Source: Lentisphaeria bacterium UBA1407
GTDB lineage: Bacteria > Verrucomicrobiota > Lentisphaeria > Oligosphaerales > Oligosphaeraceae
DNA: 64,000 nt
Reading direction: 5' to 3'
Assembly (NCBI GenBank): GCA_002305655.1
Contig: DBPZ01000118.1
Coordinates: 4,224 to 68,223, forward strand
This document shows positions 2 through 9,126 of this stretch, piece by piece. The notes under the pieces were generated by a model. That model was not told the origin of the DNA. It was given only the letters and a program-made list of their open reading frames with translations, and did not search any database. The position numbers and the translations under genes are program-made. Position 1 is the stretch's first letter, and each line of letters starts with the position of its first letter.

Positions 2-1768
2 CCCAAGCTCGTGGCTAGATATGCGGATGAATATTTCAGCAAGCATCCTGATAACTTGGGCTTGCCGATGGGGGTCAATGACGGCGGCGGCGATTGCCAA
101 TGCCCGAACTGCAAGGCGGAATTGGAACGGACCGGCAACCAATATGCCCGGTTCTATAACAGGGCGGGCGCTGTATTGGCAGAAAAATATCCGGACAAGC
201 TGATTAGCTTCATTGCCTACGGCGCTGCGTCAACCCAGTCGCCAAAGGGCGTCAAGATGCAGCCCAATGTGCTGGTGGAAATTACAGGCATGGGCAGAGT
301 CGGCGCCTACGGGCTATTCTCGGCTTGGCGCGATTGCGGCATCAAGAATTTCGGGCTTTATGACTATCTCTACACGTTTGGCAATGGCTATGTCATACCA
401 AGATATTATCCACGAGCCATGGCATCGGCTTGGAAAGAAGCGAAAAAAGAATACAACTTGCAGACGATGTGGATGGAACTCTATCCGGCAACCGGTGTTT
501 TCGACGCTGCCCGGCAATATGTGCTTGACGAGGTGGCGTGGAACATGGATGTCGATGTAGAAGCGCTCCTGGATGACTTCTTCAGCAGCATGTATCAGGA
601 AGCAGCCCTGCCGGTCAAGCGCTTCTTCGACCTGCATGAACAAGTCTTCATGCGCCAAAAAAATTGGAAACGACCGATTAACGGGTGGCAAAAGTTCTCC
701 CAAATGGACGAATATACCTGGGAAGACCTGCAAAAAATGGAGCAGGAATTGGATATTGCCAGCAAAATCAAGTTGCAGGAACTGCCTAGGAAGCGGCTCG
801 AGGCCTTAAAGAAGCTCTGGCGATTTTCCAGTTTGCGCATCCGGGGCAATATCCTGGCTCGCGAGCTGGATGCGATGCAAAACATCGATTCAAAGGCAAC
901 GGCGGATAAGTTGGTTGAACTCGTAAAGCGAGGCTATCAAAACATCGCTGATTCCGAAGCCTATGCGATGGGAGATGAAGAGGAAAAACTGATTTTCATC
1001 AACACGGAAAGGCAAAATCTTGAGAAAATTAAAAACTACTCCTATCTCTTGCCGCTGCCCAATTTTGAGAAATACAGCGAGCCGGCTCTGGAACGGCTTA
1101 GCGACTATCTCCAGAAAAACAGGCAGAACCTGCCTGCCTTCTACCAAAAGCATGCCGCCGCGAGCTCGGATGAAAGAACCCAAGCCGCCTTTTTAACGCA
1201 AGTCTATATGCGTCAAAACAAGCTTGAGAACCTCGTGCGCAATCCCTCTTTTGAGGAGAGTGCTGGTCCTGGTCGTGAAAGACCCTTGGTGAGCGACCAT
1301 GTTGAGCTTAGTGGTGTGCCGGGCTGGTCTTCATGGACTTTCCCCAGTTCAGTAACCAGGTTCTTCCTGAATTCTGAAACGGCGCATAGCGGCAAGTATT
1401 CCTGTGCGATCGGCGAGAGGCAGATAGGTGGCTCGATTATCTCCTACGTCGGGCTGCAGCCGAATTGCCGATATCGGTTAACTTTCTGGGTTCGTCGCAA
1501 CCGTGGCGACGAGGGCTTTGGCATGGGGGCGGCCAGCGTGCGCATGCAGGGTGCAAGAGGCTGGCTTGATGATGGTAGCGCAATATCCGTCGCCTATCCG
1601 CCGGAATGCGAGAACAAATGGGTTAAGTGCAGCACGGTTTTCACGGCGCCGAACGAGCCGGCTACTGCCCTGATCCTGCTTTCGGCAACCAAGCAGGCAC
1701 CGGGGGTATGGACTGCCTTTGACGATGTCAGCCTGGAAAAAGTCTATGATCCGGAAGGCGTGAGATAA
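2..1768 (+). CDS. DUF4838-like glycan-active protein with C-terminal CBM4/9-like module (5'-partial, runs off window start)
   Basis: The frame of the 11..1768 ORF stays open back to base 2 (ccc aag ctc precede the listed GTG). The GGGDCQCPNC Cys cluster and overall layout recall DUF4838/GH20-like families. The last ~170 aa (NPSFEES...FDDVSLEKV) look like a CBM4/9 beta-sandwich, similar to the N-terminus of 33309..36275. Confidence 0.5.
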   Translation, partial: PKLVARYADEYFSKHPDNLGLPMGVNDGGGDCQCPNCKAELERTGNQYARFYNRAGAVLAEKYPDKLISFIAYGAASTQSPKGVKMQPNVLVEITGMGRVGAYGLFSAWRDCGIKNFGLYDYLYTFGNGYVIPRYYPRAMASAWKEAKKEYNLQTMWMELYPATGVFDAARQYVLDEVAWNMDVDVEALLDDFFSSMYQEAALPVKRFFDLHEQVFMRQKNWKRPINGWQKFSQMDEYTWEDLQKMEQELDIASKIKLQELPRKRLEALKKLWRFSSLRIRGNILARELDAMQNIDSKATADKLVELVKRGYQNIADSEAYAMGDEEEKLIFINTERQNLEKIKNYSYLLPLPNFEKYSEPALERLSDYLQKNRQNLPAFYQKHAAASSDERTQAAFLTQVYMRQNKLENLVRNPSFEESAGPGRERPLVSDHVELSGVPGWSSWTFPSSVTRFFLNSETAHSGKYSCAIGERQIGGSIISYVGLQPNCRYRLTFWVRRNRGDEGFGMGAASVRMQGARGWLDDGSAISVAYPPECENKWVKCSTVFTAPNEPATALILLSATKQAPGVWTAFDDVSLEKVYDPEGVR

Positions 1769-1834: not shown

Positions 1835-1887
1835 TTTTGATGACTTGCCTTGCGCCGTTCATGTGCTATTTTTACACGTCATCAAAA
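1835..1887. repeat. Perfect 10-bp inverted repeat (ttttgatgac / gtcatcaaaa) with 33-nt spacer, upstream of first trp leader
   Basis: Read directly: ttttgatgac at 1835-1844 and gtcatcaaaa at 1878-1887. It lies between the stop of the upstream gene (1768) and leader ORF 1 (1977). Function unknown (operator or hairpin). Confidence 0.4.
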
Positions 1888-1976
1888 CAATGAAACGAAA
1901 AAAGTTGTTGGATGTCAGGAATTGGAAGCCCTTGGATTTAGGCAGGGGTAGCGGTTAAAGTGAATCAGTAGAGACG

Positions 1977-2084
1977 ATGGAAATGACAGCAGTGGTTGCA
2001 AATCAAGTGGCAGTGGCCGGGATCGTATGGTCTTGGCGATGGTGGATGCTGCCGGGGCGCCGCTGTTGTTTTGGCTGCCTGTGA
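1977..2084 (+). CDS. trpL: trp operon leader peptide, copy 1 (35 aa, MEMTAVVANQVAVAGIVWSWRWWMLPGRRCCFGCL)
   Basis: Hand translation from ATG 1977 to TGA 2082-2084. Four TGG codons fall within six codons (2028, 2034, 2040, 2043). A GC hairpin plus U-tract follows 60 nt downstream, and the ORF lies upstream of trpE. It is too short for the ORF track. Confidence 0.7.
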   Translation: MEMTAVVANQVAVAGIVWSWRWWMLPGRRCCFGCL

Positions 2085-2144
2085 TGTGCATGCGTAGGAT
2101 TGCACCGCACTAGCAGGGAGAAATTGTAAGAGAAGACAATAGTG

Positions 2145-2190
2145 GGCCGCACCGGCGTGATAGAACCTGGTGCGGTCTTTTTGTGTTTTG
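2145..2190 (+). terminator. Intrinsic terminator (attenuator) of leader copy 1
   Basis: ggccgcacc (2145-2153) pairs with ggtgcggtc (2169-2177), giving 9 bp with one G-U. It is followed by tttttgtgttttg. Confidence 0.65.
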
Positions 2191-2259
2191 ATTTTTGATC
2201 AGGCGGCGCCAGGGGGTACTGGGGCGCAGGTAAAGAGTAGCAGTGAATTGGTAAAGGTG

Positions 2260-2403
2260 ATGGAAATGATGACAGCAGTTGCAGTTCAGATGATGGTGAC
2301 TGGGATCTTGTTGTGGTGGTCTTGGCGATGGTGGGCATTGCCGGAGCACCGCTGTTGTTTTTGGCTGCCTGTAATGTGTGTGTGGAGAATTTCACCGTAC
2401 TAG
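2260..2403 (+). CDS. trpL: trp operon leader peptide, copy 2 (47 aa, MEMMTAVAVQMMVTGILLWWSWRWWALPEHRCCFWLPVMCVWRISPY)
   Basis: This is the C-terminal part of ORF-track entry 2170..2403, with ATG at 2260. Five TGG codons fall within seven codons (2314, 2317, 2323, 2329, 2332), plus two more (2362, 2383). It is a direct repeat of copy 1 with a 1-nt T-run indel that shifts the stop. Confidence 0.7.
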   Translation: MEMMTAVAVQMMVTGILLWWSWRWWALPEHRCCFWLPVMCVWRISPY

Positions 2404-2432
2404 CAGGGAGCAAGTGTAAGAGAAAACAAGTG

Positions 2433-2476
2433 GGCCGCACCGGCGTGATAGAACCTGGTGCGGCCTTTTTGTGTTT
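2433..2476 (+). terminator. Intrinsic terminator (attenuator) of leader copy 2, 37 nt before trpE ATG
   Basis: ggccgcacc (2433-2441) pairs perfectly with ggtgcggcc (2457-2465), followed by tttttgtgttt. The trpE RBS aaaggag follows. Confidence 0.75.
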
Positions 2477-2512
2477 AGAGCATTGAATGTCAGATAAAAG
2501 GAGTGTTGAGAT

Positions 2513-4003
2513 ATGTTGAAGCCGTCGTTTGGTGAATTTGAGGCGTTGGCGAAAGGGCACGATATCGTGCCGGTGTATAGCGAGTGCCTGGCGGATTTGG
2601 AGACCCCTGTGTCGGTGTTGAGCCGCTTTGCCGGTGATGAGCATGTGCTGCTGCTGGAAAGTGTTGAGGGCGGGGAGCGTTTTGGGCGCTATTCGTTCAT
2701 CGGAGTCAATCCACACGGAGTGTTTACGGTCGTGGACGGGAAGGCAAGCTACGAAGAGAATGGTGTGCGGCGGGAACTGGTCCATGAGGGCAATGCGCTA
2801 AACGCGCTGAGGCAGGTGGTAGGCGATCGACGGGTGGCGCCGACGCCGGGGCTTCCACCGTTGTTTGGCGGCGCATTGGGCTATATCGGATACGAGGCAG
2901 TGAATCTGTTTGAAGAGCTGCCGCCACCGAAAAGCAGGCCTGCGACGCCAGACAGTGTATTTATGGTCACGGATGAAATGATCGTGTTCGACAATGTCAC
3001 GCATACGATCAAGGTAATCATTTGCGTGCGTACGGAAGACTATGCAACCTTGCGTGATGCTTACGATGACGCCGAAGTGCGTGCGGAAGTGCTGATGAAG
3101 CGAATCGAGGTGCCGTGTCGGTTGCGTCGCGAGGCGCCACTGGTCGGCACGTTGCCTCACTTGGAAAGCAATATGCGGAGGGAGGAGTTCTGCGCGATGG
3201 TCGAGAAGGCTAAGGAATATATCCGGCAGGGCGAGGTCATTCAAGTGGTGTTGTCCCAGCGTTTTTCGGCGCCGGCGATGTCGTCGCCGCTGCAGATTTA
3301 TCGGGCGTTGCGTCTGATCAATCCTTCTCCCTACACCTTTTTCCTGAAGTTGGGAGGGCTGGTTTTAGCCGGGTCGTCGCCCGAAACGATGGTTAAGCTT
3401 GAGCGTGGTCGCTCGTCGTTGCGCCCGATTGCGGGAACGCGGCGCCGTGGCAAGACGCCGGCCGAGGATAGTGCCTTGGCCGATGAGCTGCTCAGCGACG
3501 AGAAGGAACGTGCTGAACATCTGATGCTCGTGGATCTGGGGCGAAATGACCTCGGAAGGACAGCGGTGCCGAACAGCGTTCAGGTAAAGACGTTCATGAG
3601 CGTGGAACGGTACTCGCATGTCATGCATCTGGTGAGCGATGTTGACGCCATGATAGATCCCAAGGCCGATGCACTGGACTTGATCAGGACGACTTTTCCA
3701 GCCGGGACGCTCTCGGGCGCGCCGAAGATTCGGGCGATGGAGCTAATCAATGAGCTTGAACCAGAACCTCGCGGAGTGTATGGCGGTGGCGTTGGATACC
3801 TGAGCTACAATGGCAACATGGATTTGGCGATCACGATCCGTACGATCGAAATGCGGGATAATAAGGTGTACATCCAGGTTGGCGCGGGAATCGTGTATGA
3901 CTCCGTGCCAGATAACGAATATGAGGAGACGATTAATAAGGCAAAGGCGCTGTTCAAAGCGGTCAATCTTGCCGCAAATGGAATTCATTTGTCAGCAGAT
4001 TGA
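2513..4003 (+). CDS. trpE: Anthranilate synthase component I
   Basis: 496 aa with chorismate-binding family hallmarks (LLESVEGGE, SPYTFF, GTLSGAPKIRAMELI, RGVYGGGVGYL). It is first in a trp gene order. Confidence 0.97.
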   Translation: MLKPSFGEFEALAKGHDIVPVYSECLADLETPVSVLSRFAGDEHVLLLESVEGGERFGRYSFIGVNPHGVFTVVDGKASYEENGVRRELVHEGNALNALRQVVGDRRVAPTPGLPPLFGGALGYIGYEAVNLFEELPPPKSRPATPDSVFMVTDEMIVFDNVTHTIKVIICVRTEDYATLRDAYDDAEVRAEVLMKRIEVPCRLRREAPLVGTLPHLESNMRREEFCAMVEKAKEYIRQGEVIQVVLSQRFSAPAMSSPLQIYRALRLINPSPYTFFLKLGGLVLAGSSPETMVKLERGRSSLRPIAGTRRRGKTPAEDSALADELLSDEKERAEHLMLVDLGRNDLGRTAVPNSVQVKTFMSVERYSHVMHLVSDVDAMIDPKADALDLIRTTFPAGTLSGAPKIRAMELINELEPEPRGVYGGGVGYLSYNGNMDLAITIRTIEMRDNKVYIQVGAGIVYDSVPDNEYEETINKAKALFKAVNLAANGIHLSAD

Positions 4004-4073
4004 CGCCAGATGTGTTTTCCTCGCACGAAGAATGTTGGATTGGTTTGATGAAAGATTTAACAAAGTGAGGCAT

Positions 4074-4670
4074 ATGATGATTTTGGTCATAGATAATTAC
4101 GATTCGTTTACGTACAATCTGGTGCATTTGTTGTATTCGCTGAACGCCGATGTGGTGGTGCGTCGCAACCGGGAGATTACGGTTGCGGAGGCGCTGGACA
4201 TGCGAGCAGACGGGTTGTTGTTTTCGCCGGGACCAGGTCGGCCGGCAGATGCGGGCATTATGGAGGAGCTGATTCGATTGGCGGCAGAGGAGTCGATGCC
4301 GATGCTCGGAGTGTGTTTGGGACATCAGGCAATTGGCGAGGTGTTTGGCGCGGAAGTGGTGCCGGCGACGCAGATTATGCACGGAAAGATATCACGGATC
4401 AGCCACAATGGCGAAGGGCTGTTCGCGAAGCTGAAAAATGATTTCAAGGCTGTGCGATATCATTCCCTGGCGTTAAAGGAGGCGACCTTGCCGGAGGTTC
4501 TGGAGGTGACGGCACGCGCAGACGACGGGGAAATCATGGGCGTGCGGCATCGGACGTTGCCCATACATGGCATCCAGTACCATCCGGAATCCATTATGAC
4601 TACCAATGGCAAACAACAACTGGAAAATTTTTTGAAGATTGTAGAAGACCATAAAAGAAAAGGAGCGTAA
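4074..4670 (+). CDS. trpG: Anthranilate synthase component II (glutamine amidotransferase)
   Basis: The protein starts MMILVIDNYDSFTYNL and has the triad Cys motif GVCLGHQAIG and YHPES. ATG 4074 is preceded by gtgagg. The upstream part of ORF 3810..4670 overlaps trpE and was discarded. Confidence 0.93.
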   Translation: MMILVIDNYDSFTYNLVHLLYSLNADVVVRRNREITVAEALDMRADGLLFSPGPGRPADAGIMEELIRLAAEESMPMLGVCLGHQAIGEVFGAEVVPATQIMHGKISRISHNGEGLFAKLKNDFKAVRYHSLALKEATLPEVLEVTARADDGEIMGVRHRTLPIHGIQYHPESIMTTNGKQQLENFLKIVEDHKRKGA

Positions 4671-4672
4671 TC

Positions 4673-5692
4673 ATGTTAAGGAACTACTTGCAGAAAGTCA
4701 TGGCCCATCAGGATCTCAGCGTGTTGGAAATGGACGCGCTGTTGGAAAAACTTACGGGCAGTGAGGTGTCCTTTGCCCAGGCGGGCGCCATTCTCACCGC
4801 GTTGCAGATGAAGGGCGAGAGCGTCAGCGAACTGGTTGGAGGCGCGGAAATGATGCGACGGCACGCGACCTTCATTGACTGTGGCGGTCGAGAGGTGGTG
4901 GACCTTGTCGGTACCGGCGGCGATGGAGGCATCAGCTTCAACATTTCGACCACGTCGGCGCTTGTCGCCGCAGGTGCCGGGGTGGTGATTGCCAAGCACG
5001 GGAATCGTGCGGTGTCAGGTAAATGCGGCGCTGCCGATGTGCTTGCCGAGCTTGGATTTGACCTGGCTGTGTCGCCGGCGGCGATGGAGGCCTGCATTTG
5101 TACCCATGGAATCGGTTTCATGTTTGCGCAGAAGATGCATCCGGTCATGGGCAAGGCGGCGCCATTGCGACGGGAATTGGGCATCAGGACGATCTTCAAC
5201 ATGCTAGGTCCTCTATGCAATCCGGCTGGGGCGACGCGGATGGTCGTGGGCGTCTATGAGGCGCGATTGACTGAGTTGTATGCGAATGCACTGAAAGCGC
5301 TTGGCGTAAAGCACGCAATGGTCGTGCATGGCAATGACGGCTTGGACGAGATTAGCTGTTGTGAGACGACGCGTGTGACCGAACTCAAGGACGGCAACCT
5401 GCGCAGCTACGAGATTTATCCCGAGATGTTCTTGGGCGAATCGTACGACATAGCCGATATCGCCGGCGGTGATCCCGCGCAGAACGCTGCGATTTTGAGG
5501 AGCGTGGTTGACGGTGTGGAGCGTGGGGCGCCGAGATCGGTGGTGTTGTTGAATGCGGCAGCGGCCTGCTATGTGGCTGGTCGGGCAAAGGATCTGGCTG
5601 AGGGAATCGGAATGGCGGCGGAGTCCATCGACAGTGGCGCTGCCGCCGCGAAGCTGGAGACCTTGATTGCGGAAAGTCGAGGTGCAATATGA
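4673..5692 (+). CDS. trpD: Anthranilate phosphoribosyltransferase
   Basis: 339 aa with the GTGGDG motif, KHGNRAVSGKCGAADVLE and FNMLGPLCNP. Confidence 0.95.
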   Translation: MLRNYLQKVMAHQDLSVLEMDALLEKLTGSEVSFAQAGAILTALQMKGESVSELVGGAEMMRRHATFIDCGGREVVDLVGTGGDGGISFNISTTSALVAAGAGVVIAKHGNRAVSGKCGAADVLAELGFDLAVSPAAMEACICTHGIGFMFAQKMHPVMGKAAPLRRELGIRTIFNMLGPLCNPAGATRMVVGVYEARLTELYANALKALGVKHAMVVHGNDGLDEISCCETTRVTELKDGNLRSYEIYPEMFLGESYDIADIAGGDPAQNAAILRSVVDGVERGAPRSVVLLNAAAACYVAGRAKDLAEGIGMAAESIDSGAAAAKLETLIAESRGAI

Positions 5693-6495
5693 TTGCCCAC
5701 GGGGGTAAGGACATGACCATTCTGAATCAAATTGTTCGGGATTTGCTGCCAAGTTTGACGGCAAGCAAAGAACGCCTGCCTTTAAGGGAGTTGGAGATTA
5801 TGGCGAAGGATTCGCCACCGCCCAAGGATTTTGCGACCGTGTTTCGGACGCCGGGTCTGCATGTGATTGCGGAGCTGAAGAAGGCGTCGCCGTCAAAGGG
5901 CGTGATTCGTCCGAATTTCGACTACTTGGAATGCGCTCAGGCACTCGAGTCGGCAGGCGCAGCGGCCTTGTCGGTGCTGACGGAAGAGAATTATTTCTTG
6001 GGCAGCTTGCGGATACTGAAAGAGGTCGCCCAACAGGTGGATATCCCCTTGTTGCGCAAGGATTTCATTGTTGACCCCTATCAGATTTGTGAAGCACGCT
6101 TGCATGGCGCATCGGCGGTGTTGTTGATAGCGGCCTTGTTGCCTGCCGATGAATTGGTCCGTCTAAGCGACTACGCAAAGAGTTTGGGACTGACCGTGCT
6201 TGGCGAAGCGCACAATAAGGAGGAACTGAAGACGCTGTTGGGTTGCGACATAGAGTTGATTGGCATTAACGCACGGGATTTGCATAGCTTTGGCACAAAC
6301 ACAAGCGAGGCCAACAAGCTGCTTGGTCAGGTGCCAGCGGATCGCATTGCCATTGCCGAAAGCGCGATGAACAATCACGAAGACCTCGTGCGTGCCAAGC
6401 AAGCGGGTGCGCGTGGATTTTTGGTAGGCGAGGCGCTTATGCGCGCAGAATGCCCGGGCGACAAGCTCAAGGAGATGCTATGCGGCCACATGTGA
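5689..6495 (+). CDS. trpC: Indole-3-glycerol-phosphate synthase
   Basis: Motifs IAELKKASPSKG, LSVLTEENYFLGS and LLRKDFIVDPYQI. The start overlaps the trpD stop as ATGA (5689-5692). Confidence 0.93.
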   Translation: MIAHGGKDMTILNQIVRDLLPSLTASKERLPLRELEIMAKDSPPPKDFATVFRTPGLHVIAELKKASPSKGVIRPNFDYLECAQALESAGAAALSVLTEENYFLGSLRILKEVAQQVDIPLLRKDFIVDPYQICEARLHGASAVLLIAALLPADELVRLSDYAKSLGLTVLGEAHNKEELKTLLGCDIELIGINARDLHSFGTNTSEANKLLGQVPADRIAIAESAMNNHEDLVRAKQAGARGFLVGEALMRAECPGDKLKEMLCGHM

Positions 6496-7097
6496 AATTG
6501 TGCGGCATGACGCGGGTAGAGGACGTACGAGCAGCAGTGGAGGCCGGTGCGGACTACGTGGGATTTGTGCTGGTTGCTTCATCGCGACGTCGCGTAATGC
6601 CGTCGGCGTTGGACGAGCTGATCGCTGCGGTTGCGCCGGCGCGGGCGGTGTGCGTGATTGCTGACGAGGCATTGACGGTTGCACGGCGCTTGGCGGCGGC
6701 ACATCCTTCGCTGATTATGCAGCTGCACGGGCAAGAAAGCGCCGAGTACGCGCAGGCGTTGGCGGCCGATGGCGTTGAAGTATGGAAGGCAGTGGTATTG
6801 AATGACGACGACGACCTGTTGCGCTACGCGGATTTTCCAGCATCGCGGCTGGTGGTTGACGCCGCGCAAGGCGGTTCAGGTCGCCTGTGCGATTGGCGCT
6901 TGGCGGCGGCACTGGCGTCGCGTCGCCCGGTATTGCTGGCGGGCGGGATTGGTCCGGGCAACGCGGTGGCGGCTTGGCGGGCGACTGGTGCTTGGGGTTT
7001 GGACTTGGCCAGCGGCGTGGAGGACGCGCCGGGCATCAAATCAATCGAAAAGATCAATAAACTCATGACCGCGTTGCGGTCGCTAGACAAGGAGTAG
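6480..7097 (+). CDS. trpF: Phosphoribosylanthranilate isomerase
   Basis: The MRPHVKLCGMT start matches the family N-terminus. aaggag lies at 6469-6474, 5 nt before ATG 6480. The gene overlaps the trpC end by 16 nt. The ORF-track start at 6450 is judged an extension. Confidence 0.88.
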   Translation: MRPHVKLCGMTRVEDVRAAVEAGADYVGFVLVASSRRRVMPSALDELIAAVAPARAVCVIADEALTVARRLAAAHPSLIMQLHGQESAEYAQALAADGVEVWKAVVLNDDDDLLRYADFPASRLVVDAAQGGSGRLCDWRLAAALASRRPVLLAGGIGPGNAVAAWRATGAWGLDLASGVEDAPGIKSIEKINKLMTALRSLDKE

Positions 7098-7103
7098 TAA
7101 ACG

Positions 7104-8291
7104 ATGAAAACTCATTATGGAATATATGGTGGCCAGTACGTTGCCGAGACGCTGATGCCCATTTTGCATGAACTGGAAAAAGAATACCTGGCTGCGCGGG
7201 AAGACCCCTCATTTCAGGAGGAATTCAGGTCTTTGTTGAAGAATTATGTTGGTCGCGAGTCGCCCCTGTATTATGCGCGGCGGTTGAGCGAGCATCTTGG
7301 CGGTTCTCGGATTTATTTGAAACGGGAAGATTTGAACCATACTGGTGCGCACAAGATCAACAACACAATCGGACAAGCTCTGCTGGCAAAGCGAATGGGC
7401 AAGACGAGGTTGATTGCTGAGACGGGCGCCGGCATGCATGGCGTGGCAACGGCGACGGTCGCGGCGCTGTTCGGCTTTGAATGCGAGGTCTTTATGGGAA
7501 CGACGGATATTGACCGACAAGCGGTCAATGTGGAACGCATGCAGACCCTGGGAGCGACAGTTCGACCAGTCAGCGAGGGGTCGGCAACGCTCAAGGATGC
7601 TATGAACGAGGCGCTGCGAGATTGGACGGCGTGGTCGGCTGACACGTTTTATGTCATCGGGACGGTGGCTGGCCCCCATCCCTATCCGCTGCTGGTCAAG
7701 GATTTCCAGTCGGTCATAGGTGAAGAGGCGCGTCGGCAATGCCTGGAACAGACTGGACGGTTGCCGGACGAGGTCGTCGCCTGTGTCGGCGGCGGTAGCA
7801 ATGCGATGGGCATCTTCGCGGGCTTTTTAGAGGACAGCGACGTAGCGTTGACGGGCGTGGAAGCCGGCGGTGCGGGCATTGCCACGGGCAAGCATGCCGC
7901 AAGCATCACAGGCGGTCGCGTGGGCGTGCTCCATGGCAGCAAAACCTACCTGCTTCAGGATGACAACGGACAAATATTAGAGACACATTCGGTCTCTGCC
8001 GGTCTGGATTATCCAGGCGTGGGACCGGAACATTGTTTTTTGGCGGACAGCCGGCGTGCACGCTATGTAACCGTTGATGACGAAGAAGCCGTTGACGCTT
8101 TTGCCATGTTGGCACGCTTTGAGGGCATCATACCTGCTCTGGAGAGCTCGCACGCGCTGGCCTATGCCATCCGTACTGCGCCAGCGCAGAGTCGGGATAG
8201 GATTGTCGTCGTCAATTTGTCAGGTCGCGGTGACAAGGACATGGATTCGATTCGGCGCTTCCGTAAACAACAAGTCGCTTCGGCAAAATAA
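7104..8291 (+). CDS. trpB: Tryptophan synthase beta chain
   Basis: Motifs [11 protein letters not shown] (PLP lysine), [10 protein letters not shown] and [10 protein letters not shown]. 395 aa. Confidence 0.97.
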
Positions 8292-8319
8292 AGGGCAATA
8301 TAAAAGTGAAGGAGTCGTT

Positions 8320-9126
8320 ATGGATAAAATACAGAAAATCTTTGCATCATGCGCAGCGGCAGATCGAGCGGCATTGGTGATATTTTGCAGTTGTGGCTAT
8401 CCGGACATGGATAGCAGCGAACAGATTATTGAAGACGCGATAGCCGCAGGTGCGGATATCATCGAACTAGGTGTGCCTTTTTCGGATCCGATGGCCGATG
8501 GCGCGGCCATTCGCCAGGCATCAGAGGTGGCGCTGCGACAAGGCGCGACATTGAAGGGCGTGCTGGCAATGGCGGAGCGGCTCAGCAAGCGGCATCCCGA
8601 TACGGGATTCATTCTTTTCAGCTACATGAATGTGATGCTCAATTACGGACTGGACGCATTGTGCACTGAGCTTCGGCGGATTGGCGTCGATGGCATTTTG
8701 GCGGTGGATCTGCCCTATGAGGAGAGAGCCGAGCTGGCTGACCCATGCCGGTCGGCGGGGTTGCATCTCATACCGTTGGTGTCGCCGATGACGTCGCTTG
8801 AGCGTGCGGCGATGATCATGGGCGAGGCTACGGGCTTTGTCTATAGCGTGAATATCTGTGGTATTACGGGTGTCCGCGAGAAGTTGCCGCCTGAAGTTGC
8901 TGAGCGCCTGGCGGCTCTCAAGGAGCGGTCGCCAGTACCGGTGGCGGCAGGCTTCGGAATTGCCGATGGCGAGTCAGCGAAGGCAATCGCGCGGGTCGCT
9001 GACGGTGTCGTGGTCGGCTCGGCAGTGATCAACAAGCTACTGGCACCCGGTGAGCTGGAGACACGTCGGCGCGATGCGAGCGAGTTGGTGAGGACTTTGG
9101 CAGGGAGTATGTCGCGCCATGCATGA
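8320..9126 (+). CDS. trpA: Tryptophan synthase alpha chain
   Basis: The protein starts MDKIQKIF at ATG 8320, preceded by gaaggag. Motifs ELGVPFSDPMADG and GFGI. The earlier part of ORF 8074..9126 overlaps trpB. Confidence 0.92.
   Translation: MDKIQKIFASCAAADRAALVIFCSCGYPDMDSSEQIIEDAIAAGADIIELGVPFSDPMADGAAIRQASEVALRQGATLKGVLAMAERLSKRHPDTGFILFSYMNVMLNYGLDALCTELRRIGVDGILAVDLPYEERAELADPCRSAGLHLIPLVSPMTSLERAAMIMGEATGFVYSVNICGITGVREKLPPEVAERLAALKERSPVPVAAGFGIADGESAKAIARVADGVVVGSAVINKLLAPGELETRRRDASELVRTLAGSMSRHA

Follow-up and report, generated by a model that had tools for sequence, protein, structure and literature searches.

Upstream of the trp operon in a 64,000-nucleotide (nt) stretch of DNA from Lentisphaeria bacterium UBA1407 (contig DBPZ01000118.1, positions 4,224 to 68,223; hereafter the window), two copies of a ~288-nt unit lie in direct repeat at window positions 1908-2483. 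Each copy is composed of a short Trp-rich open reading frame (ORF), a middle hairpin, and a strong intrinsic terminator. We interpret the copies as two leader-peptide transcription attenuators in series, which would have arisen by tandem duplication of the unit after the split from Oligosphaera ethanolica, and we assign this reading a probability of roughly 0.65.

Two Trp-rich leader units before trpE

The repeat is located in the 745-nt intergenic region in front of trpE, the first gene of a complete trpEGDCFBA operon (2513-9126, end approximate). TrpE matches the family TIGR00564 with 530 bits, above the cut-off, and trpG, D, C, F, B, and A are matched as well. The repeat consists of three gap-free blocks of 85-91% identity, positioned 288-290 nt apart, and so bears out the direct repeat of ~280 base pairs (bp) described in a first-pass annotation of the window. 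From the ORF start to the terminator, the two copies are 83% identical with 9 gap columns. In addition, three stretches, TTGGATGTCAG (1908-1918), TTTGATCAGG (2196-2206), and TTGAATGTCAG (2483-2493), stand in register at ~288-nt intervals. The repeat therefore seems to comprise two full periods and the first bases of a third, and the stretches likely mark the duplication boundaries.

The ORF coordinates, the translations, and the eleven TGG positions given in the first-pass annotation are all correct on re-reading. TGG codons lie at 2028, 2034, 2040, and 2043 in leader ORF 1 and at 2314, 2317, 2323, 2329, and 2332 in leader ORF 2, which carries two more at 2362 and 2383. At least four TGG codons within six codons are found at only two sites in the six frames of the 64-kb window, and these are the two leader ORFs; a search of the window for other amino-acid attenuators found none. 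The UGGs of the units are consistently in one frame, downstream of a start codon. The Trp core TGGTCTTGGCGA is common, in frame, to both leaders and to the leaders of relatives, so that the Trp codons are conserved as the first-pass annotation expected. Both leader ORFs are predicted to be translated.

The strong Shine-Dalgarno sequence of unit 2 (AAGGTG, 2254-2259) is positioned 6-9 nt upstream of two in-frame ATG codons, at 2266 and 2269. Therefore, one of these is more likely the true start of ORF 2 than 2260. In unit 1, a weak Shine-Dalgarno-like GAGA (1971-1974) alone precedes the possible starts at 1977 and 1983. The units are thus unequal, with a weak ribosome-binding site and four Trp codons in the run of unit 1, and a strong site and five in that of unit 2.

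Past the Trp run, the two ORFs part. As had been pointed out in the first pass, an indel, T4 (2069-2072) versus T5 (2358-2362), changes the frame, and the stops (2082-2084 and 2401-2403) precede the terminator stems by 60 nt in unit 1 and 30 nt in unit 2. The ORF 1 stop falls just beyond segment 2 (see below), and the ORF 2 stop falls within the 3' strand of the unit 2 middle hairpin. Unit 1, unit 2, and the O. ethanolica unit each have the tail in a different frame, indicating that the tail peptide is not conserved, though the underlying RNA segment 2 is. A further frame of unit 1 (1996-2097, plus strand) holds a TTG-initiated ORF, LQIKWQWPG..., which is without counterpart in unit 2; its TGGCAGTGGC resembles the RWQWRW core of the leaders in L085 and L093 (L numbers are our handles for the sequences compared).

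The terminators are present at both sites proposed in the first pass, each with a T5 tract, but the stems are longer than the 9 bp given there. Both stems have 12 + 2 bp, and terminator 1 has one extra G.U pair. A simple terminator scan of 1700-2600 returned neither and is uninformative for these terminators, possibly because of their internal bulge and loop layout. Both terminators are predicted to be functional. On folding, each unit beats all of its 200 dinucleotide shuffles (z in Table 1).

Table 1 Features of the tandem trp leader in window coordinates
Feature	Position	Strand	Basis or remark
Putative promoter	1845..1872	+	-35 TTGCCT (1845-1850), 16-nt spacer, extended -10 TGCTATTTT (1864-1872)
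Attenuator unit 1, first repeat copy	1908..2195	+	repeat blocks, alignments, fold z = -3.8
Leader ORF 1, 35 codons	1977..2084	+	MEMTAVVANQVAVAGIVWSWRWWMLPGRRCCFGCL, then stop; Trp run WSWRWW
Unit 1 segment 1, 5' strand of long-range 1:2 helix	1985..1998	+	minimum free energy (MFE) folds; 1:2 duplex -20.9 kcal/mol
Unit 1 segment 2, partner of segment 1 or segment 3	2046..2073	+	folds; 2:3 duplex -33.4 kcal/mol
Unit 1 middle hairpin, inside antiterminator	2075..2119	+	folds
Unit 1 segment 3, antiterminator 3' strand, overlaps terminator 1 5' arm	2133..2158	+	folds, duplex energies
Terminator 1	2144..2182	+	stem-loop 2144-2178, -24.1 kcal/mol; T5 2178-2182, then GTGTTTTGATTTTTG
Attenuator unit 2, second repeat copy	2196..2483	+	repeat blocks, alignments, fold z = -4.8
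Leader ORF 2, 47 codons counted from 2260	2260..2403	+	MEMMTAVAVQMMVTGILLWWSWRWWALPEHRCCFWLPVMCVWRISPY, then stop; Trp run WWSWRWW
Unit 2 segment 1	2268..2276	+	folds; 1:2 duplex -14.5 kcal/mol
Unit 2 segment 2	2336..2363	+	folds; 2:3 duplex -24.7 kcal/mol
Unit 2 middle hairpin	2364..2410	+	folds
Unit 2 segment 3, overlaps terminator 2 5' arm	2421..2446	+	folds, duplex energies
Terminator 2	2432..2470	+	stem-loop 2432-2466, -26.8 kcal/mol; T5 2466-2470; 42 nt to trpE start
trpE, first operon gene	2513..4003	+	own Shine-Dalgarno AAAGGAG 2496-2502

Alternative helices and the proposed mechanism

Each unit contains three mutually exclusive helices, 1:2, 2:3 (antiterminator), and 3:4 (terminator). 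Folding thereby provides, for both units, the antiterminator alternatives that the first-pass annotation had envisaged, and with an ORF, a terminator, and a predicted antiterminator in each unit, the trpL-like architecture it proposed before trpE holds up in our models. In accordance, an inverted-repeat search pairs 2340-2361 of unit 2 with 2423-2444. In the full-length MFE fold, segment 1 pairs with segment 2, and the middle hairpin and the 3:4 terminator are also present. The duplex energies of the 3:4 helices are -23.7 kcal/mol in unit 1 and -26.4 kcal/mol in unit 2. Set against the values for the 2:3 helices (Table 1), the unit 1 antiterminator outweighs its terminator, and the unit 2 terminator marginally outweighs its antiterminator; the energies are comparable among the alternatives, as in classical attenuators. 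The suspicion voiced in the first pass that the copies differ in coupling geometry is therefore confirmed in stop position, Shine-Dalgarno strength, and helix energies.

We folded the nascent transcript, before the terminator 3' arm, with the bases covered by a ribosome masked through +14 of the A-site codon. With the ribosome on the first or second core Trp codon (UGG UCU UGG), the 2:3 helix forms across the middle hairpin and takes all of the GGGCCGCACCGGC arm. This result holds for unit 1, unit 2, and the O. ethanolica-type unit (L091, L086). With the ribosome on the third core codon or beyond, only the base of the 2:3 helix forms and most of the GGGCCGCACCGGC arm is free. With the ribosome at the stop of unit 1, the terminator forms. 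These models support a dependence of the alternative helices on ribosome position in both units.

Both alternative structures fit 4/4 sequences of the alignment, with 89.5% and 88.2% of cells paired, as compared with 38-62% when the partners are slid. The 1:2 helix has 98% of cells paired across the four sequences, and the helices of the middle hairpin have 100% and 84%, including one pair in which both partners have changed. All four sequences have the stretch CACTAGCAGGGAG without variation; the model pairs its CUAGCAGG part and leaves the trailing GAG unpaired.

Taken together, we propose the following mechanism. In each unit, the ORF positions 4-5 Trp codons just upstream of segment 2. When charged tRNA-Trp is plentiful, the ribosome would pass segment 2 and reach the stop, with segment 2 either covered or re-paired with segment 1; segments 3 and 4 would then form the terminator and the polymerase would halt at the T5 tract. 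When Trp is scarce, the ribosome would stall on the first Trp codons, inside the loop needed by the 1:2 helix, leaving segment 2 free. Segment 2 would pair with segment 3 across the middle hairpin, the terminator 5' arm would be sequestered, and the polymerase would read through. No promoter-like site was found between the units, either in a consensus scan of 1700-2600, which is weakly informative for promoters, or by eye in 2183-2259. A transcript would therefore have to escape both terminators to reach trpE. Read-through would be roughly p1 x p2, the product of the probabilities at the two units, giving lower basal expression and a wider dynamic range.

Transcription of the leader probably starts from the putative promoter at 1845-1872. 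Its boxes score below the threshold of the consensus scan, and it is proposed because TTGNNN-N16/17-TAYTNT boxes stand in the same relative place in L001, L002, L005, L010, L091, and L100. From this inferred start, the predicted terminated leader RNAs are roughly 300 nt and 590 nt long. A 17-nt inverted repeat (1831-1847 and 1875-1891; ATTATTTTGATGACTTG and CACGTCATCAAAACAAT), 88% complementary and with arms 27 nt apart, flanks the putative promoter and could be a repressor operator or a relic.

Relatives of the leader and origin of the tandem

The window TrpE falls in a 90% cluster with WP_307261326.1 of O. ethanolica, which places the window in an Oligosphaera species (Lentisphaerota), and the TrpE of the O. 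ethanolica genome (L100) is 93.5% identical to it. We treat L100 together with the near-identical metagenome contigs L091, L086, L087, and L101 as the O. ethanolica lineage. The first-pass annotation had raised the choice between one and two units in relatives; in this lineage there is one homologous unit, as seen in L100, L091, and L101, which reach well upstream, while L086 and L087 begin at the first base of the unit and the number of preceding units is not readable there. The leader ORF of the lineage, MSEVKNNSGVLVLAVESSWSWRW(R/C)..., has 2-3 Trp codons. The unit keeps the middle hairpin of the window, the invariant CACTAGCAGGGAG, and the terminator, and the same 1:2, 2:3, and 3:4 scheme folds in it. 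A scan of metagenome DNA with the 21-nt terminator core returned one contig, L091.

Between the terminator and trpE, where the window has unit 2, the O. ethanolica lineage has a 32-nt minisatellite (GGGTTTGGTGGCGAAAGGTTCGCGGGTGGTGT), located at 254-460 of L086, ~1369-1445 of L100, ~2105-2150 (minus strand) of L091, and ~254-330 of L087. Depending on the assembly, ~1.5 to 6.5 copies are present. The minisatellite is TGG-rich, and a GTG-initiated ORF ends in ...VVWVWW and a stop ~60 nt upstream of trpE. We considered it as a second sensor and rejected it, as it has no significant structure (z = 0.02).

More distant relatives, with TrpE 65-78% identical (L081-L085, L089, and L092-L094), have short leaders, among them MQNMQYSNTMSWSWR, MQQLSHQNVMFWSWSWR, MKTQTYIYISNRWQWRW, and MKKISYNLENSRWLWR, each running to its stop. 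These are ORFs of 15-17 codons that contain the in-frame core TGGTCTTGGCGA and stop immediately past the Trp run, with ends such as MSWSWR, FWSWSWR, RWQWRW, and RWLWR. The Trp codons constitute the 5' strand (segment 1) of a local textbook 1:2 hairpin. By the shared core, the window leaders are homologous to these leaders of classical form. Trp-run leaders also precede trpE in Victivallales and several Desulfobacterota. The Trp-codon ORF thus appears, from these comparisons, to be a feature conserved across the phylum, which is the strongest argument for the window units as ribosome sensors. The Oligosphaera lineage has lost the stop behind this run (TGA/TAA to TGG), and its ORFs continue onward.

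The short-leader relatives present further features of their own. One Trp-run leader ORF followed by two serial hairpin-plus-T-run terminators recurs in the 250 nt before trpE, in L081-L085, L089, and L092-L094 (Oligosphaeraceae-like) and also in L004, L016, L024, L029, L039, L043, L060, and L065 (Smithella / Desulfobacterales). MFE folds of the distant relatives show a classical antiterminator for the first terminator but none for the second. By eye, the post-stop segment of L094 looks complementary to the 5' arms of both terminators. The unit 1 middle hairpin of the window may be a relic of the first of these two terminators, based on its position and the GGATTGMAC motif, compared by eye with L083 and L085. 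At ~1750-1790 of L083, ~1740-1780 of L085, and ~85-125 of L089, a -10-like box lies a few bases before the leader ATG, with no Shine-Dalgarno sequence visible, and the short-leader relatives may translate the leader from a leaderless or near-leaderless transcript.

The tandem appears to be a recent lineage-specific duplication and not a conserved design, since the relatives carry one unit. Unit 1 and unit 2 are 83% identical, and either is 74-76% identical to the O. ethanolica unit; trpE of the window is 63% identical to that of the O. ethanolica lineage at four-fold degenerate sites. The two units resemble each other more than either resembles the O. ethanolica unit, indicating that the duplication took place after the species split or that the copies have been homogenised. 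The divergence is uneven along the unit. Unit 1 versus unit 2 identity, with that of either to the sister unit in brackets, is 70% (59-60%) in the N-terminal ORF part, 85% (76-77%) in the Trp core and segment 2, 82% (71-76%) in the middle hairpin, and 98% (93-95%) in segment 3 and the terminator. In both copies, the frame stays open across the Trp run, 4-5 Trp codons remain, and every helix and the T5 tract are preserved. This pattern fits, without proving, purifying selection on both copies.

A second tandem is found in a Victivallales metagenome-assembled genome (MAG), L005 (CAKUJH010000012.1). Two Trp leader ORFs, starting at 2137 (MKHIETYRAWRW, then stop) and 2304 (MNMIYNNGCWWCWCG..., given also as MNMIYNNGCWWCWCGIPEGVPPGFTCR and stop), each with its own terminator, lie before trpE at 2137-2500. 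The two L005 units have no detectable sequence similarity to each other, indicating that this tandem is not a recent duplication. Tandem arrangements are thus present in 2 of ~15 Lentisphaerota lineages sampled, and the unrelated L005 case suggests that the serial arrangement arises repeatedly.

The window tandem is 100% identical over 1882-2600 in an independent MAG contig, JAXGYQ010000014.1 (L096, GCA_040772185.1), and the same-species contigs are 99.7-100% identical to the window at this locus. The copies share an exact repeat of ~35 nt (2141-2175 = 2429-2463). Three k-mer-based Logan contigs with the same TrpE (L097-L099) all stop at window 2434, inside this exact repeat, as is expected of a k-mer assembler at a true repeat. 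In another MAG of the same species, L095, there is a single hybrid unit whose junction falls in the terminator, inside the exact repeat. Either recombination has truly deleted one unit there, or the assembly has collapsed the two.

Upstream of the leader, the neighbouring gene of the window (11-1768) encodes a DUF4838 / CBM_4_9 protein. In L095 (1-1157) and L096 (1-399), which are identical to the window from 1882 on, the upstream sequence is replaced, and a degraded IS91-like transposase fragment (PF04986, 18.5 bits, below the cut-off) takes the place of the DUF4838 gene and the putative promoter. The DUF4838-trpE arrangement of the window looks ancestral, because this synteny is common to L085.

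Alternative readings and comparison with known systems

Several observations weigh against two ribosome-sensing attenuators in series. Unit 1 is without a good Shine-Dalgarno sequence, the stop position varies among unit 1, unit 2, and O. ethanolica, and a single unit suffices in that sister species. Given L095, the tandem may be polymorphic or dispensable. Positioned 30-45 nt upstream of the Trp codons, segment 1 is not covered by the stalled ribosome, unlike in E. coli trpL, where segment 1 contains them; the stalled ribosome would have to exclude the 1:2 helix by a steric or topological effect, or a queued second ribosome would do so. In full-length MFE folding, the terminator also coexists with a shortened 2:3 helix. 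The terminator wins at equilibrium, and the antitermination decision must therefore be kinetic, as in E. coli. Finally, covariation is not significant (94/500 and 128/500 shuffles reach the score) in a set of four sequences, three of them independent and one of them the source of the structure.

In the main rival reading, one unit works and the other is a recent near-neutral duplicate, decaying or acting as an extra leaky terminator, the tandem being without designed function. The duplication is lineage-specific, with one unit in O. ethanolica and close relatives; unit 1 has the weak ribosome-binding site and the G.U pair in its terminator; the copies still share ~35 nt of exact identity; and the hybrid unit of L095 suggests that recombinational loss is tolerated. 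We nevertheless consider this unlikely, if deserving of serious weight. Despite ~17% substitution (30% in the N-terminal ORF part), both frames are open through the Trp run, both units have 4-5 Trp codons versus 2-3 in the units of the O. ethanolica lineage, and the three alternative helices, a strong terminator, and the T5 tract are retained in both. Moreover, a constitutive unit 1 terminator would cripple the operon, and L095 is equally explicable as an assembly collapse across the exact repeat. That assembly and the breaks of the short-read assemblies at window 2434 (L097-L099) could also be taken to mean that the tandem itself is an assembly artefact, in which two strain variants of one leader were fused head to tail. 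This is barely credible, since the copies differ by 17% and indels, far above the strain variation at this locus, the junction sequence is unique, and the identical tandem in L096 stands in a different upstream context. It is very improbable, too, that the units do not sense the ribosome and instead act as structured RNAs with affinity for uncharged tRNA-Trp (T-box-like) or for a Trp-activated protein (TRAP-like or new). In favour of this reading are the length and strong structure of the units, the local hairpin that contains the first two core Trp codons, and the invariance of CACTAGCAGGGAG, of which the model pairs only a part. The binding sites would be the UGG run together with the invariant CACUAGCAGGGAG / GAGAGAAGAC stretches; tandem T-boxes before Bacillota trp operons offer a precedent. 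On the other side, every UGG is read in the same frame, downstream of a start codon, and in relatives the homologous core lies in 15-17-codon ORFs that stop right past the Trp run, which is the signature of a leader peptide.

Searches for known RNA classes also speak against a tRNA- or protein-binding RNA. Against Rfam, 1700-2700 gives no match even at E <= 1 and with lax filters, and the whole window gives none at the gathering score. On the leaders of five relatives, nothing relevant is matched at E <= 1, the sole matches being sub-threshold, miRNA-like, and on an unrelated hairpin at 480-565 of L091. A T-box (RF00230) is taken to have a stem I with a specifier loop and a conserved sequence (GGUGGNACCGCG) in the bulge of the antiterminator; it has no Rfam match, and a search for its core motif was empty. 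A TRAP-type leader is taken to have 9-11 (G/U)AG triplets at 2-3 nt spacing that overlap the antiterminator; in 1880-2512, there is no run of at least four such triplets at 2-3 nt spacing. The Trp_leader covariance model (RF00513) has no match even at E <= 1, and the element would thus work like a trpL-type attenuator while lying outside the RF00513 sequence family.

Within the serial-attenuator reading, we infer that the two units decide independently, as the first-pass annotation proposed; folding suggests that they might be coupled. The unit 1 segment 4 (CCUGGUGCGGUC, 2167-2178) is fully complementary to the unit 2 segment 3 (2432-2443), with a duplex energy of -23.7 kcal/mol. With the unit 1 segment 3 constrained to an upstream partner, the MFE fold of the nascent transcript to 2456 pairs exactly these two segments. 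An antiterminated unit 1 would then free segment 4, which would pre-empt terminator 2, so that a stall on leader 1 would feed forward to the second gate and the response would be cooperative, switch-like, or memory-bearing. As a related possibility, the terminated leader RNAs could act in trans like rnTrpL. We rate such coupling or trans action as quite improbable, because the near-identical terminator arms would have to meet across a ~250-nt loop and refolding could pre-empt the pairing.

If two attenuators in series are indeed present, the locus constitutes a natural experiment, in which the cultured O. ethanolica has a single homologous attenuator and the window species has two, with copies that have drifted apart in ribosome-binding-site strength, Trp codon number, stop position, and helix energies. 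Extra regulatory codons and a second gate would be the evident ways to enlarge the dynamic range, and they might take the place of a repressor.

Attenuation by a leader peptide is well known from textbooks and is almost always described with one sensor per operon. The window leader resembles the E. coli and enterobacterial trpL in its ORF with clustered Trp codons, its 1:2, 2:3, and 3:4 helices, the terminator before trpE, and the predicted preference for the antiterminator when the ribosome stalls. It has no sequence or covariance-model similarity to trpL (RF00513). The window leaders have 35-47 codons with 4-7 Trp, as compared with 14 codons and 2 Trp in E. coli, and, apart from the position of segment 1, the window antiterminator differs in enclosing an extra hairpin. 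The chief difference is the presence of two complete units in series. The short leaders of Oligosphaeraceae and other Lentisphaerota (L081-L085, L089, L092-L094, L001-L003, and L010) share with the window the core TGGTCTTGGCGA and the position before trpE, and their second terminator is related in sequence to that of the window (GGCCGCAYC...). They have one 15-17-codon ORF with the Trp codons as segment 1 and two terminators per sensor, whereas in the window lineage the stop and the T-run of the first terminator have been lost and the complete unit has been duplicated.

The Salmonella mgtCBR leader also has tandem attenuators, with two short ORFs, mgtM and mgtP, that each control alternative RNA structures (Lee & Groisman 2012, PMC3641672). 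The mgtCBR ORFs sense different signals, ATP and proline, and act additively, and two predicted intrinsic terminators are described for the metE tandem-riboswitch leader, not for mgtCBR (PMC3641672). In the window, both ORFs are Trp-rich, a separate terminator follows each, and the two are predicted to respond to one and the same amino acid. Biosynthetic genes are normally under a single attenuator (Lee & Groisman, PMC3641672). In Sinorhizobium meliloti, trpL is likewise a ribosome-dependent attenuator before trpE(G), and termination releases a small leader RNA (rnTrpL) and a peptide, for which trans-acting roles have been demonstrated (PMC6614838, PMC7298713). By comparison, the window leader peptides are not conserved between species. 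In a literature search, whose full-text coverage was incomplete so that absence is weak evidence, we found no tandem ribosome-mediated (leader-peptide) attenuator for any amino acid, including Trp, and no account of trp attenuation in Lentisphaerota.

Tandem T-boxes precede the trp operons of the Bacillus cereus group, and serial modules are expected to multiply read-through probabilities, resulting in a more digital response. Tandem arrangements have also been described for glycine and other riboswitches (Sudarsan et al. 2006, as cited in PMC3641672). The window tandem is like tandem riboswitches and T-boxes in having two complete sensor-plus-terminator modules for the same signal on one transcript, with no promoter between them in the consensus scan. 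It differs in the sensor, which is a tRNA- or metabolite-binding RNA in those systems and is predicted to be a ribosome on a leader ORF in the window. Serial sensors of the same signal are thus documented for riboswitches and T-boxes, and the window tandem is predicted to be a rare natural case of leader-peptide attenuation built in this way, an incremental variant with no new principle.

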